Positions 12,001-18,000 of a stretch of DNA of 64,000 nt are shown piece by piece. The DNA is from Escherichia coli (lineage in GTDB: Bacteria > Pseudomonadota > Gammaproteobacteria > Enterobacterales > Enterobacteriaceae). The stretch is from assembly GCF_013315695.1 (NCBI RefSeq), contig NZ_CP054353.1; one strand, written 5' to 3'. The first letter of the stretch is position 1, and every line of letters starts with the position of its first letter. A program made the position numbers.

Positions 12001-15000
12001 CGTCAATGAAATGAGCAACCCCGGGCGCGACTATCCACTGGCTATGTTACTGCTGATGGTGGCGGCAATCTGCTTAAGCTCTGTTGGCGGTTTGTCTATT
12101 GCGATGGTCATTCCGGGTAATGAAATCAACCTCTCCGCAGGGGTAATGCAAACCTTTACCGTTCTGATGTCACATGTGGCACCGGAAATTGAGTGGACGG
12201 TTCGCGTGATCTCCGCACTGCTGTTGCTGGGTGTTCTGGCGGAAATCGCTTCCTGGATTGTTGGTCCTTCTCGCGGGATGTATGTCACAGCGCAGAAAAA
12301 CCTGCTGCCAGCGGCATTCGCTAAAATGAACAAAAATGGCGTACCGGTAACGCTGGTCATTTCGCAGTTGGTGATTACTTCTATCGCGTTGATCATCCTC
12401 ACCAATACCGGTGGCGGTAACAACATGTCCTTCCTGATCGCACTGGCGCTGACGGTGGTGATTTATCTGTGTGCTTATTTCATGCTGTTTATTGGCTACA
12501 TTGTGTTGGTTCTTAAACATCCTGACTTAAAACGCACATTTAATATCCCTGGTGGTAAAGGGGTGAAACTGGTCGTGGCTATTGTCGGTCTGCTGACTTC
12601 AATTATGGCGTTTATTGTTTCCTTCCTGCCGCCGGATAACATCCAGGGTGACTCTACTGATATGTATGTTGAATTACTGGTCGTGAGTTTCCTGGTGGTA
12701 CTTGCCCTGCCCTTTATTCTCTATGCTGTTCATGATCGTAAAGGCAAAGGGAATACCGGCGTCACTCTGGAGCCAATCAACAGTCAGAACGCACCAAAAG
12801 GTCACTTCTTCCTGCACCCGCGTGCACGTTCACCACACTATATTGTGATGAATGACAAGAAACACTAACCATGTCTGAATGGTTATAAGATAAGGGAGCG
12901 ATAATTCATCGCTCCCTTTTTCGTGCTTGCTGTCGTATTGACTTAACCGGGATAAGTACGAGAATGAGCGCACATCTGTTTACCGGAAACCAGCACATAT
13001 GGATATCTGCTCCCGAAACGAGAAATTAGCGATTAGAAGACCAGCGATACTGGTTGCACTGGCACTTTTACTGTGTAGTTGTAAAAGCACGCCTCCAGAG
13101 TCCATGGTGACACCACCAGCGGGTTCAAAGCCACCAGCCACGACGCAACAATCGTCACAACCGATGCGTGGCATCTGGCTGGCCACGGTGTCTCGCCTCG
13201 ACTGGCCACCGGTTTCCTCGGTTAACATTAGTAACCCCACCAGCCGGGCACGTGTACAACAACAGGCGATGATCGACAAACTGGATCATCTGCAACGTCT
13301 CGGCATAAACACGGTCTTTTTTCAGGTCAAGCCGGATGGTACCGCCCTGTGGCCATCGAAAATTTTGCCGTGGTCCGATCTTATGACCGGTAAGATTGGT
13401 GAAAATCCGGGTTACGATCCGCTGCAATTCATGCTCGACGAAGCCCACAAGCGTGGGATGAAAGTACACGCATGGTTTAACCCCTATCGCGTATCGGTTA
13501 ATACGAAGTCCGGTACTATCAGGGAACTGAATAGCACCCTGTCTCAACAACCGGCGAGCGTCTATGTGCAACACCGCGACTGGATCAGAACGTCCGGCGA
13601 TCGCTTTGTCCTCGACCCGGGCATACCTGAGGTTCAGGACTGGATCACATCAATAGTCGCAGAAGTGGTTTCCCGCTATCCGGTAGATGGCGTGCAGTTT
13701 GACGACTATTTCTATACTGAGTCACCAGCTTCACGGCTAAATGATAACGAAACGTACCGCAAATACGGCGGCGCATTTGCGTCAAAAGCAGACTGGCGGC
13801 GCAACAATACTCAGCAGTTAATTGCGAAGGTATCGCACACCATTAAAAGCATTAAGCCGGAAGTCGAATTTGGCGTTAGCCCGGCAGGCGTGTGGCGTAA
13901 CCGATCACACGATCCGCTCGGTTCCGATACCCGAGGCGCGGCAGCCTATGACGAATCCTACGCTGATACCCGTCGATGGGTGGAACAAGGGTTGCTGGAT
14001 TACATTGCTCCCCAAATATACTGGCCATTCTCACGGAGTGCCGCGCGTTATGACGTGTTGGCAAAATGGTGGGCGGATGTCGTTAAACCGACCAGGACCC
14101 GCCTGTATATCGGTATCGCCTTCTATAAAGTAGGAGAACCTTCAAAGATAGAGCCAGACTGGATGATTAACGGCGGCGTACCGGAACTGAAAAAGCAGCT
14201 CGATCTTAACGATGCCGTGCCAGAAATTAGCGGCACAATCTTGTTCCGTGAGGACTATCTGAATAAGCCACAGACTCAACAAGCGGTCAGCTATCTGCAA
14301 AGTCGTTGGGGCAGTTAAACTCCCATTCTTACTTTGTAACAAGCCGGTGCTTTCCCCCCGGCTTGTTACCCTCTTGAAATATCCCACTAGTAATCATGCT
14401 TACTTAAGTCAAATTAACTACGCAATTAACCACACTTAGGTGATGCTGCCAACTTACTGATTTAGTGTATGATGGTGTTTTTGAGGTGCTCCAGTGGCTT
14501 CTGTTTCTATCAGCTGTCCCTCCTGTTCAGCTACTGACGGGGTGGTGCGTAACGGCAAAAGCACCGCCGGACATCAGCGCTATCTCTGCTCTCACTGCCG
14601 TAAAACATGGCAACTGCAGTTCACTTACACCGCTTCTCAACCCGGTACGCACCAGAAAATCATTGATATGGCCATGAATGGCGTTGGATGCCGGGCAACA
14701 GCCCGCATTATGGGCGTTGGCCTCAACACGATTTTACGTCACTTAAAAAACTCAGGCCGCAGTCGGTAACCTCGCGCATACAGCCGGGCAGTGACGTCAT
14801 CGTCTGCGCGGAAATGGACGAACAGTGGGGCTATGTCGGGGCTAAATCGCGCCAGCGCTGGCTGTTTTACGCGTATGACAGGCTCCGGAAGACGGTTGTT
14901 GCGCACGTATTCGGTGAACGCACTATGGCGACGCTGGGGCGTCTTATGAGCCTGCTGTCACCCTTTGACGTGGTGATATGGATGACGGATGGCTGGCCGC

Positions 15001-18000
15001 TGTATGAATCCCGCCTGAAGGGAAAGCTGCACGTAATCAGCAAGCGATATACGCAGCGAATTGAGCGGCATAACCTGAATCTGAGGCAGCACCTGGCACG
15101 GCTGGGACGGAAGTCGCTGTCGTTCTCAAAATCGGTGGAGCTGCATGACAAAGTCATCGGGCATTATCTGAACATAAAACACTATCAATAAGTTGGAGTC
15201 ATTACCGAAGAAGTCATTGGCAATAACATTGATATGCTGATTCCGCGGGATTTGCGTCCTGCGCATCCTGAATACATTCGTCATAACCGTGAAGGCGGTA
15301 AAGCGCGCGTCGAGGGGATGAGTCGGGAGCTGCAGCTGGAGAAAAAAGACGGCAGTAAAATCTGGACCCGTTTTGCGCTATCGAAAGTGAGCGCCGAGGG
15401 GAAAGTTTATTACCTGGCGCTGGTACGGGATGCCAGCGTAGAAATGGCGCAAAAAGAACAGACCCGACAATTGATTATTGCCGTTGACCATCTCGACCGA
15501 CCGGTGATTGTCCTCGATCCGGAACGCCATATTGTGCAGTGCAATCGCGCATTTACCGAAATGTTTGGTTACTGCATTAGCGAAGCCAGCGGTATGCAGC
15601 CCGATTCACTCCTTAACATTCCTGAATTCCCTGCCGATAACCGCATTCGTTTACAACAGTTGCTTTGGAAAACCGCCCGCGATCAGGACGAATTTCTGCT
15701 ATTGACGCGCACCGGTGAAAAAATCTGGATTAAAGCCTCTATCAGCCCGGTTTATGACGTGCTCGCGCATCTGCAGAACCTGGTAATGACCTTCTCGGAT
15801 ATCACCGAAGAACGGCAAATCCGCCAGCTTGAAGGCAATATTCTCGCCGCCATGTGCAGCAGCCCGCCATTTCATGAAATGGGGGAAATCATTTGTCGTA
15901 ACATCGAATCTGTACTCAACGAATCGCATGTTTCGCTGTTCGCGCTGCGCAACGGGATGCCGATACACTGGGCGTCATCTTCGCACGGTACAGAAGTTCA
16001 AAATGCGCAAAGCTGGTCAGCGACCATTCGTCAGCGTGATGGCGCGCCGGCGGGGATCCTGCAAATTAAAACCTCGTCAGGAGCAGAAACCAGCGCCTTT
16101 ATCGAACGCGTGGCAGATATCAGCCAGCATATGGCCGCGCTGGCGCTGGAACAGGAAAAAAGCCGTCAGCATATTGAACAACTCATCCAATTTGATCCGA
16201 TGACCGGTCTGCCAAATCGCAATAACCTGCACAATTACCTCGATGACCTGGTCGACAAAGCCGTCTCTCCGGTGGTGTATCTCATCGGTGTTGACCATAT
16301 TCAGGATGTGATTGATAGCCTTGGCTATGCGTGGGCCGATCAGGCATTGCTGGAAGTGGTCAATCGCTTTCGTGAAAAATTCAAACCGGATCAATATCTC
16401 TGTCGTATCGAAGGTACGCAGTTTGTCCTCGTGAGCCTCGAAAACGACGTCAGTAACATTACGCAGATCGCCGATGAGCTACGGAATGTGGTCAGCAAGC
16501 CGATAATGATTGACGATAAACCATTCCCGCTCACCTTGAGCATTGGCATCAGCTACGACGTGGGTAAAAACCGCGATTACCTGCTCTCCACTGCTCACAA
16601 TGCAATGGATTTTATTCGCAAAAATGGCGGTAACGGCTGGCAGTTCTTCAGCCCGGCGATGAACGAAATGGTAAAAGAGCGTTTGGTTTTAGGCGCGGCG
16701 CTGAAAGAAGCAATTAGCAATAACCAACTGAAACTGGTTTACCAGCCACAAATCTTCGCAGAAACGGGTGAACTGTACGGCATCGAAGCCCTTGCTCGCT
16801 GGCACGATCCCCTGCATGGTCATGTGCCCCCTTCACGGTTTATTCCTCTCGCAGAAGAGATCGGTGAAATAGAAAATATTGGACGCTGGGTCATCGCGGA
16901 AGCTTGTCGTCAGTTAGCAGAATGGCGTAGCCAGAATATTCATATCCCGGCGTTATCCGTTAACTTGTCGGCGTTGCACTTTCGCAGTAATCAGCTGCCT
17001 AATCAGGTGTCTGATGCAATGCAAGCCTGGGGTATTAACGGCCACCAGCTGACGGTGGAAATCACGGAAAGCATGATGATGGAACACGATACCGAAATCT
17101 TTAAACGCATTCAGATCCTGCGCGATATGGGCGTGGGTTTATCGGTAGATGATTTTGGCACGGGCTTTTCCGGATTATCCCGCTTAGTCAGTCTTCCAGT
17201 AACGGAAATCAAAATTGACAAAAGTTTTGTCGATCGTTGTCTGACCGAAAAACGCATCCTTGCCTTACTTGAAGCCATTACCAGCATTGGGCAAAGCCTT
17301 AATTTAACCGTCGTGGCGGAAGGCGTCGAAACCAAAGAGCAATTTGAGATGCTACGCAAGATCCACTGTCGCGTTATTCAGGGATATTTCTTTTCCCGCC
17401 CCCTACCCGCCGAAGAAATTCCAGGCTGGATGAGCAGTGTGTTACCGCTGAAAATCTGACAAATTCCTCTCGCCCGCACTCGCGGGTTTTCCTTTAACGT
17501 GACACTGTCACTTAAATACTGTGATTTCAGCTACGATTCCGGGAGATTCCTTCCTTAACTTCCCCTCTTGCACCAAAACTGCACTACGCTGCACAAATGT
17601 TGATCAAAAGTTAAAAAATATAACTTTAAGCCAGCATTCTGGCGCTTATCCCGGCATGGCATGAGATCTGCATAAGCGGAAAGCGCAGCAATTTTTGTCT
17701 TATACAGGAACCATTTATGTCGGATACCACCGAACTGGTTGATTTAGCCGTGATCTTCCCTGATCTGGAGATCGAACTGAAATACGCCTGCGCTGATAAC
17801 ATCACAGGTAAAGCTATTTATCAGCAAGCGCGTTGTCTGTTACACAAGGATGCGATTACCGCGCTGGCGAAAAGTATCAGTATCGCCCAGCTGTCAGGCT
17901 TACAACTGGTGATTTACGATGCGTATCGCCCACAACAAGCACAGGCGATGTTGTGGCAAGCCTGCCCAGACCCGCAATATGTTGTTGATGTGGCGGTCGG

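Follow-up and report, generated by a model that had tools for sequence, protein, structure and literature searches.

Adjacent deletions have classically been described for IS1. The loss of dosC, in turn, is common elsewhere in E. coli, and is found in the B2 lineage, in Shigella, and in other IS1 events. The lack of a target duplication around an insertion sequence (IS) is a recognised mark of either an adjacent deletion or recombination between IS copies (PMC11708052). In Shigella flexneri, dgcO (dosC) carries a truncating deletion, and pdeO (dosP) is listed without a mutation entry (PMC11327459).

The locus considered here lies in a 64-kb stretch of E. coli DNA, which was analysed at its full length and is referred to as the window. 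A complete IS1 is almost certainly located at a deletion of 1,809 bp, which took the upstream region of dosC, dosC itself, and codons 1–49 of dosP. No description of this allele was found in the literature combining dosC, dosP, or yddV with IS1.

The IS1 element and its junctions

The digH–dosP locus of the window contains the following features, in order.

12999–14318, plus strand: digH (yddW), the intact upstream neighbour of the deletion, a 439-aa ORF whose counterpart in the collinear record of MSB1_4I bears the name digH
14319–14438, plus strand: the first 120 bp of the digH–dosC intergenic region, which is kept and is identical to MS 21-1 L009 4381-4500
14439–15206, plus strand: IS1 copy A (IS1A-type), with insA at 14494-14769, the A6C motif at 14743, and the insB' frame at 14688-15191
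15207–17459, plus strand: dosP remnant, codons 50-799 and the stop, delimited by tblastn, in phase 0 at the junction, and a pseudogene in RefSeq
17717–18298, plus strand: ddpX, which opens the ddp operon downstream; this operon is intact and untouched by the deletion (ORF and MSB1_4I annotation)

The initial annotation placed an IS1 at 14319-15233. The element is indeed present at the digH–dosP locus, complete and 768 bp long, and occupies only 14439-15206 on the plus strand, given that the broader range also takes in the spacer at 14319-14438 and dosP sequence at 15207-15233. Copy A belongs to the IS1 family (IS1A type) by its length, its inverted repeats, and its frameshifted insA/insB' arrangement. 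The terminal inverted repeats are 23 bp long and imperfect, with the left repeat (GGTGATGCTGCCAACTTACTGAT) and the reverse complement of the right repeat (GGTAATGACTCCAACTTATTGAT) matching at 18 of 23 positions, as read from the sequence. The insA frame comprises 91 aa and the insB' frame 167 aa, and the A6C frameshift motif, TTAAAAAAC, lies at 14743. The same IS1 in MSB1_4I is annotated by RefSeq as [quoted passage not shown]. The 39-nt left end of IS1 has three matches in the window, where none would be expected by chance, and the three copies (A, B, and C) are identical in sequence. With insA, insB', and the A6C frameshift site all intact, copy A is apparently an active element.

The left junction of copy A lies 120 bp beyond the digH stop, which ends at 14318, in agreement with the distance of about 120 bp that was first estimated. 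The right junction, expected at roughly codon 50 of dosP, falls at 15207, which is nucleotide 148 of dosP and the first base of that codon, and reads EEVIGNNIDMLIPRD. The digH–dosC spacer that was kept contains a GC-rich hairpin, AACAAGCCGG...CCGGCTTGTT, at about 14339-14370, and ends at the left breakpoint (...CCACACTTA), where the GC content is 27% within 50 bp either side in the ancestor-like sequence. The only promoter-like match within 14200-15400 lies inside the left end of the IS1.

No target-site duplication is found at copy A, and the observation that the two flanks share no 9-bp repeat is borne out, with CCACACTTA on the left and GAAGAAGTC on the right. Copy A is thus not a simple insertion, and its membership of the family is unaffected. 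The junction sequences that are diagnostic for one versus two IS1 copies at the locus are ...CCACACTTA/GGTGATGCTG, ...GTCATTACC/CCACACTTAGTTAAACAG, ...GTCATTACC/GAAGAAGTCATT, and ...GAAGAAGTC/GGTGATGCTG.

The deleted segment

Exactly 1,809 bp are absent in comparison with the near-isogenic MS 21-1, which has no IS1 at this locus. Positions 4501-6309 of MS 21-1 L009 (1,809 bp) are exchanged for the 768-bp IS1, and the flanks agree to the base, with five mismatches between MS 21-1 and the window in 4.4 kb on the left, and one in 3 kb on the right. The gap contains 255 bp upstream of dosC, the 1,383 bp of dosC, a 24-bp spacer, and dosP codons 1-49, and it confirms the removal of dosC and the loss of the 5' end of dosP. 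The ends of the missing ancestral segment coincide exactly with both ends of the IS1 that was kept.

The initial annotation is also correct on the K-12 arrangement, since in MG1655 the interval between the two junction points contains dosC, the small ORF yddY, and codons 1–49 of dosP. In BL21(DE3), digH-dosC-dosP is intact and without IS1. One outcome that would have counted against the initial reading, a reference strain with digH directly followed by this position of dosP, is not observed, both K-12 and BL21(DE3) having dosC and a full dosP in between.

The missing segment has no DNA match anywhere in the 64-kb window. The dosC gene is absent from the whole window, where DosC matches only a paralogue, through its GGDEF domain (53395-53859, 38.6% identity). 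In the MSB1_4I and AF3 genomes, the check for a second dosC covered the chromosomes, and the missing segment was not found elsewhere in either of them (with a composite query, which matched one place versus two in the intact relatives). The relocation of an intact dosC, which was the other outcome envisaged at the outset, is ruled out for the window and for these two chromosomes.

Fate of DosC and DosP

The layout of the dosCP operon, in which dosC lies upstream of dosP in the same orientation, between digH and ddpX, is not retained at this locus. Full-length DosP with its N-terminal haem PAS-A is also absent, residues 1–49 having been deleted. The remnant matches DosP residues 46-799 at 98.5% identity (tblastn), and keeps PAS-B, GGDEF, and EAL at 98.5% identity to K-12, without a promoter, a ribosome-binding site, a start codon, or the 26 residues with which the haem PAS-A begins. 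This domain corresponds to DosP residues 24-124 in Pfam, and the haem-PAS construct that was solved as 1S66 spans residues 8-126; about a quarter of the domain is gone. RefSeq labels the remnant a pseudogene, “missing N-terminus”.

The deleted region upstream of dosC should hold the dosCP promoter. A consensus promoter scan of the ancestral digH–dosC spacer gave no match, which is uninformative, because the operon is reported to be RpoS-dependent (PMC5635695). The strain would lack the oxygen-sensing diguanylate cyclase DosC, and its partner phosphodiesterase, DosP, is probably a dead remnant, with its promoter and start codon gone and its haem-PAS truncated. The loss of the one and the death of the other would render the local DosC/DosP c-di-GMP module null. 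Such a natural double knockout of the module, for which MS 21-1 provides a near-isogenic, intact comparator, could serve to test the contribution of the module in a wild, human-associated strain.

The remnant lies in the same frame as the insB' of the IS1, with a TAA stop and five codons between them, and its first in-frame ATG is Met59 at 15234, which leaves an ORF of 741 codons. No Shine-Dalgarno sequence is visible before this Met59. It is very unlikely that the remnant is alive, which would involve a read-through transcript from IS1 or digH, and either a start at Met59 or read-through of the stop, to give a DosP without a functional haem sensor that acts as an oxygen-blind c-di-GMP phosphodiesterase. 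If this were true, a gas-regulated cyclase/phosphodiesterase pair would have been turned into an unregulated c-di-GMP sink. This change could have been selected in the human-associated clone, and would resemble the situation in B2 strains and Shigella, where dosC has repeatedly been lost and dosP kept.

Distribution of the allele

Among the matches listed for 5,426 complete E. coli genomes, only two genomes share both junctions. These two, MSB1_4I and AF3, come from Australia and the UK, were sequenced independently, and belong to the clone of the window. MSB1_4I and the window are collinear and show eight mismatches in 50 kb. No genome with one junction but not the other was found among the matches listed for the 5,426 genomes, and the clade itself comprises five genomes. 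In the three closest relatives, MS 21-1, OZ546925, and OZ546911, the interval is intact and IS-free. There are at least 39 IS1 places in MSB1_4I, AF3, OZ546925, and OZ546911, and 18 in MS 21-1, and the median over all genomes is approximately 10. The deletion of dosC and the start of dosP is an allele of a rare, IS1-rich clone related to MS 21-1. The link to the B lineage suggested in the initial annotation does not hold, given the IS1-free digH-dosC-dosP of BL21(DE3). A B-lineage trait is ruled out by the intact K-12 and BL21(DE3), and by the composition of the eight genomes that covered at least 80% of the junction query, with no B strain among them.

Other IS1 copies in the window

The window contains two further copies of the element.

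50979–51746, plus strand: IS1 copy B, without a target duplication, replacing 387 bp of an alkyl/aryl-sulfatase gene in comparison with MS 21-1
59803–60570, minus strand: IS1 copy C, lying between mcbR and pqqU as a simple insertion flanked by a 9-bp duplication (GGCATTTAC), at a site that is empty in MS 21-1

Copy C represents an internal control for plain IS1 insertion in this genome. Copy B represents the same type of event as copy A. Across the 64 kb, IS1 accounts for two deletions and one insertion in comparison with MS 21-1, which shows that it erodes genes in this clone.

Origin of the deletion

The most likely origin of the loss of dosC and the start of dosP, with a probability of roughly 0.6, is the insertion of an IS1 followed by an adjacent deletion. 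The IS1 would first have inserted at one of the two breakpoints, of which the AT-rich digH–dosC spacer may be the likelier, being a site of IS1 in other strains as well. By intramolecular transposition (“adjacent deletion”), one of the ends of the element would then have attacked another site in the same molecule, at a distance of 1.8 kb, with the intervening DNA and one copy of the 9-bp duplication being discarded, which would leave a single IS1 with two non-matching flanks. The region of the left breakpoint is hot, with unrelated strains bearing independent IS1 copies, flanked by duplications of their own, at distances of 8 bp and 121 bp. The assignment to the adjacent deletions is made from the end product, because the insertion preceding the deletion is unobserved. 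The initial annotation had preferred an IS1-adjacent deletion to a simple insertion, and this is still the best reading. The end product of an adjacent deletion is also that of recombination between two direct IS1 copies.

Such a recombination is possible, if rather unlikely. Two IS1 copies would have inserted in the same orientation, one in the digH–dosC spacer and the other at dosP codon 50, and RecA-type recombination would have excised 1.8 kb and one IS1, leaving a hybrid element with its left flank from one copy and its right flank from the other. This yields exactly the observed product, a single IS1 with non-matching flanks, and recombination between ISs is listed as a frequent cause of missing duplications (PMC11708052). 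The clone has at least 39 identical or near-identical IS1 copies, which makes double hits plausible, and the spacer has been targeted repeatedly by IS1 in other strains. It demands, however, two insertions within 1.8 kb and a recombination, rather than one insertion and one transposition, and no genome with a single or double insertion was found among the matches listed, the interval being intact and IS-free in MS 21-1, OZ546925, and OZ546911. The 387-bp event at copy B would, in addition, need the same coincidence at an even closer range.

The capture of an IS1 at a DNA break during the deletion, in one step and without the normal staggered cut of the target, is quite improbable. This type of capture has been proposed for some IS5 and IS481 rearrangements, in which the pattern of an IS centred in a deletion, with no duplication and no intermediate, is that seen here (PMC11708052), where no intermediates were found among the matches listed. 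Their absence from only five sequenced relatives is nevertheless weak evidence, the mechanism is not known for IS1, and all 14 cases checked in the long-term experiment could be ascribed to ordinary adjacent deletions once earlier time points were viewed (PMC11708052). It is highly improbable that an IS-free deletion came first, with IS1 inserting later, precisely at the scar. Deletions of this type are known in the region, such as the dosC'-ddpD' fusion of some O157:H7 and the B2 dosC remnant, but a normal IS1 insertion gives a duplication of 8–9 bp, as in copy C, 65COLEC, MLI110, and STEC276, which is absent here, and the IS1 ends fall exactly on both deletion endpoints. IS1 is also highly repeated in this genome, and repeats are classic sites of mis-joins, through which an assembly could have dropped dosC. 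An artefact of this kind is scarcely credible, given that two complete genomes, sequenced independently (Australia and the UK), share the junctions of the window, and that the missing segment is absent from the whole chromosomes of both MSB1_4I and AF3.

Comparison with known systems

A close parallel is provided by IS adjacent deletions, as documented for IS150 during long-term evolution of E. coli in the laboratory (the long-term experiment of PMC11708052), with which the window shares the IS kept at the junction, the lack of a duplication, a deletion that begins exactly at the IS end, and an apparently active element in an IS-rich genome. The difference is that the allele of the window is known from its end product alone. 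The mechanism is a textbook one, and this is an ordinary kind of gene loss, with no new mechanism or kind of element.

Simple IS1 insertions in or near dosC (65COLEC; MLI110, MB06021, and BDSF8-3; STEC276) involve the same element, orientation, and locus as copy A, with MB06021 and BDSF8-3 being placed with MLI110 by their hit pattern alone. The IS1 of 65COLEC lies 8 bp to the left of the left junction of the window, and that of MLI110 lies 121 bp to the right. Unlike the window, 65COLEC, MLI110, and STEC276 have lost no DNA, and the IS1 of each is flanked by a duplication of 8–9 bp; the insertion leaves dosCP whole in 65COLEC and MLI110, and does no more than split dosC in STEC276. Neither 65COLEC nor MLI110 can be the ancestor of the allele, given their own duplications and backgrounds diverged by approximately 2.3%, which indicate independent events.

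As in the window, the deletions of EC17CM6 (dosC'/IS1/bdm) and MS20673 (digH/IS1/sra) remove dosC and/or dosP and have an IS1 at their junction. These two deletions also take the ddp operon and osmC, with different endpoints and in unrelated backgrounds, and MS20673 additionally lacks bdm.

The B2-type dosC remnant (ATCC 25922, ST131) is likewise a natural loss of DosC by deletion (bioRxiv 10.1101/2022.05.07.487787). It differs from the window in having no IS at the junction, an intact dosP, and a 165-nt tail of dosC, and the ddp operon, which is kept in the window, is absent in ATCC 25922. In approximately 1,100 of the 5,426 genomes, less than 80% of the missing segment is present; those sampled have the B2-type allele, in comparison with the two genomes that have the allele of the window among the matches listed. 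In Shigella flexneri, dosC has also been inactivated by deletion, in a host-adapted, IS-rich lineage, although pdeO (dosP) has no mutation entry there (PMC11327459), whereas the start of dosP is lost in the window. Alongside the B2 strains, Shigella, a subgroup of O157:H7, and several IS1 events, the window adds one precisely mapped case to the repeated, independent loss of dosC.

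Structure of the IS1 copy and extent of the loss

The element lying between digH (yddW) and the remnant of dosP (IS1 copy A) is one of three IS1 copies in the window, which are identical across all 768 bp; the window contains the 39-nt left end of IS1 three times, where none would be expected by chance. The features of copy A are as follows:

14439-15206, + strand, complete IS1 (768 bp) with 23-bp imperfect terminal inverted repeats
14494-14769, + strand, intact insA frame
14688-15191, + strand, intact insB' frame
14743, intact A6C frameshift motif

The initial annotation had placed an IS1 where dosC and the 5' end of dosP belong, and had read the arrangement as an IS1-adjacent deletion; the observation was correct, and the reading is supported. 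Its range, 14319-15233, contains the element, but also extends 27 nt into dosP at the right-hand side and, on the left, takes in retained intergenic DNA, namely the 120 bp between the digH stop codon and the left IS1 end. The right end adjoins GAAGAAGTC..., which is translated as EEVIGNNIDMLIPRD, and alignment to K-12 MG1655 identifies window position 15207 as nt 148 of dosP, with which codon 50 begins. In K-12, the interval between the two junction points contains dosC, the small ORF yddY, and dosP codons 1-49. The nine bases flanking copy A, CCACACTTA on the left and GAAGAAGTC on the right, are unrelated, and there is thus no target-site duplication, as had been noted initially.

A comparator search using 1.5 kb of each flank joined, with the IS1 taken out, recovered strain MS 21-1 (human colon, USA), in which the flanks are identical and digH-dosC-dosP is intact and IS-free. 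Compared base by base with this near-isogenic strain, the window has lost exactly 1,809 bp, made up of:

255 bp, spacer upstream of dosC
1,383 bp, dosC
24 bp, dosC-dosP spacer
147 nt, 5' end of dosP (codons 1-49)

Around the deletion, the window and MS 21-1 are separated by five mismatches over 4.4 kb of the left flank and by one over 3 kb of the right flank, the latter being a private C-to-T change at 16380 in the dosP remnant (Leu441Phe), which is also absent from the genome of MSB1_4I. Just to the left of the IS1 site, 12 bp at 14409-14420 (TACGCAATTAAC) are missing from K-12 and present in the window's clone and MS 21-1; they represent one unit of an imperfect AATTAAC-containing repeat, of which strain 65COLEC has a 1-bp variant form.

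Distribution and genomic context

Both junctions of copy A were found in only two of the 5,426 complete E. coli genomes: one is MSB1_4I, an Australian rectal-swab isolate, and the other AF3, a UK blood-culture isolate whose IS1 carries a 1-bp deletion. Window and MSB1_4I are collinear, differ by eight mismatches over 50 kb, and share the sites of all three IS1 copies; the window therefore represents a third isolate of one clone. In a 17-kb comparison of the two, four of the five differences cluster within 440 bp in the gadB region (10517-10955), which may reflect gadA/gadB gene conversion. The interval is intact in the closest relatives, MS 21-1, OZ546925, and OZ546911. Flank identity is 99.4-99.6% to IAI39, CE10, and one ST648 strain, and about 97.2-97.8% to K-12; an early hint at the B lineage was mistaken, as BL21(DE3) is intact and has no IS1 here.

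Nothing in the window matches the missing 1,809-bp segment at the DNA level, and the only DosC-like protein match (53395-53859) falls in a paralogue, whose GGDEF domain shows 38.6% identity to that of DosC. The gene involved (52816-53865, + strand) encodes a 349-aa GGDEF-domain protein and adjoins a disrupted sulfatase gene. At the whole-genome level, a composite query, formed by a 4-kb block identical only in this clade and the 1,809-bp segment, was located in one place each in the MSB1_4I and AF3 chromosomes, and in two each in MS 21-1, OZ546925, and OZ546911; the segment has therefore not been relocated on the MSB1_4I and AF3 chromosomes.

Origin of the deletion

The other two IS1 copies of the window are:

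50979-51746, + strand, IS1 copy B, no target duplication, flanks CGCGCCAGCC / GAAGCTCTC
59803-60570, - strand, IS1 copy C, plain insertion between mcbR and pqqU (yncD) with a 9-bp duplication, GGCATTTAC

The site of copy C is empty in MS 21-1, and copy B takes the place of 387 bp of the MS 21-1 sequence inside an alkyl/aryl-sulfatase gene; copy B thus marks a second IS1-associated deletion in the window. MSB1_4I, AF3, OZ546925, and OZ546911 each have at least 39 chromosomal IS1 places; MS 21-1 has 18, and the median for all complete E. coli genomes is about 10, which suggests an IS1 expansion in the lineage of the first four.

A plain insertion of copy A is excluded, given that the duplication is absent and 1,809 bp are gone, while a deletion followed by the insertion of an IS1 at the scar is disfavoured, since the later insertion should have made a duplication. 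Two routes stand out as the main candidates. In one, an IS1 would have inserted first and then produced an adjacent deletion through intramolecular transposition from one of its ends; in the other, two direct IS1 copies would have recombined. Either is known to account for missing duplications (PMC11708052), and both would leave the same product. The adjacent deletion is favoured for four reasons, none of them decisive: it requires fewer events; copy A is intact, in a clade rich in IS1; copy B has the same signature at shorter range; and the left breakpoint lies in DNA of 27% GC, with independent IS1 insertions nearby in unrelated strains, 8 bp away in 65COLEC and 121 bp away in the MLI110 type, each with its own duplication. 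No intermediate stage was found among the 5,426 complete genomes, and both the choice of route and the side of the first insertion are therefore inferences.

Consequences for DosC and DosP

DosC is gone from the locus, and the dosP remnant, a pseudogene according to RefSeq in MSB1_4I and AF3, has lost its upstream region, ribosome-binding site, start codon, and residues 1-49. Given that the haem PAS-A domain spans residues 24-124 (Pfam), and the solved haem-PAS construct 1S66 residues 8-126, the deletion has taken away about one quarter of the sensor fold. Within 14200-15400, a promoter-like match occurs only in the IS1 left end, and no Shine-Dalgarno sequence can be seen upstream of the remnant's first in-frame ATG (Met59, 15234). 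The remnant shares its reading frame with the insB' stop codon (TAA, 15189-15191), from which five sense codons separate it (*VGVITEEV, 15189-15215); a fusion would require stop-codon read-through, and we regard the shared frame as a curiosity.

In the literature (PMC5635695), DosC and DosP are reported as antagonistic partners that are induced by RpoS, bind RNase E, and appear to exert control over PNPase, and DosC (DgcO) as the cyclase that K-12 expresses most strongly in stationary phase. The predicted phenotype is the loss of the local oxygen-dependent c-di-GMP input of this pair.

Comparison with other losses of dosC

Of the 5,426 genomes, 4,296 contain at least 80% of the 1,809-bp segment, and about 1,100 (about a fifth) fall below this level, with those sampled mostly holding only a third. 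ATCC 25922 shows this allele; like other B2-type strains, it retains only a 165-nt dosC 3' remnant (locus L013, 2757-2921) and an intact dosP, but the ddp operon is absent and osmC directly follows dosP; the same DosC change has been described in an ST131 study (bioRxiv 10.1101/2022.05.07.487787). In some O157:H7 strains (F7349, locus L014, 2756-4392), a deletion without any IS has joined dosC, truncated at its 3' end, to a ddpD-like gene truncated at its 5' end, taking out dosP and ddpXABC, and a truncating dgcO deletion is known in Shigella flexneri (PMC11327459).

At least five further independent IS1 events, three simple insertions and two larger deletions, were found at the digH-dosC spacer or dosC in unrelated strains, using a query design that detects same-orientation IS1 copies only:

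65COLEC (L004), simple insertion, duplication CAATTAAC
MLI110 type (L002), simple insertion, duplication GCGTAGATT
STEC276 (L005), simple insertion inside dosC, duplication CGCGCCACG
EC17CM6 (L007), larger IS1-flanked deletion reaching bdm (dosC'/IS1/bdm)
MS20673 (L008), larger IS1-flanked deletion reaching sra (digH/IS1/sra)

No paper on the window's specific dosC/dosP allele was found in the literature, and the general interest of the deletion is low. The allele is distinctive only in the loss of both partners by one small IS1-flanked deletion that leaves ddp intact, and the event, found in a rare clone, is otherwise ordinary for an IS1-associated deletion and adds a new example to a familiar class.
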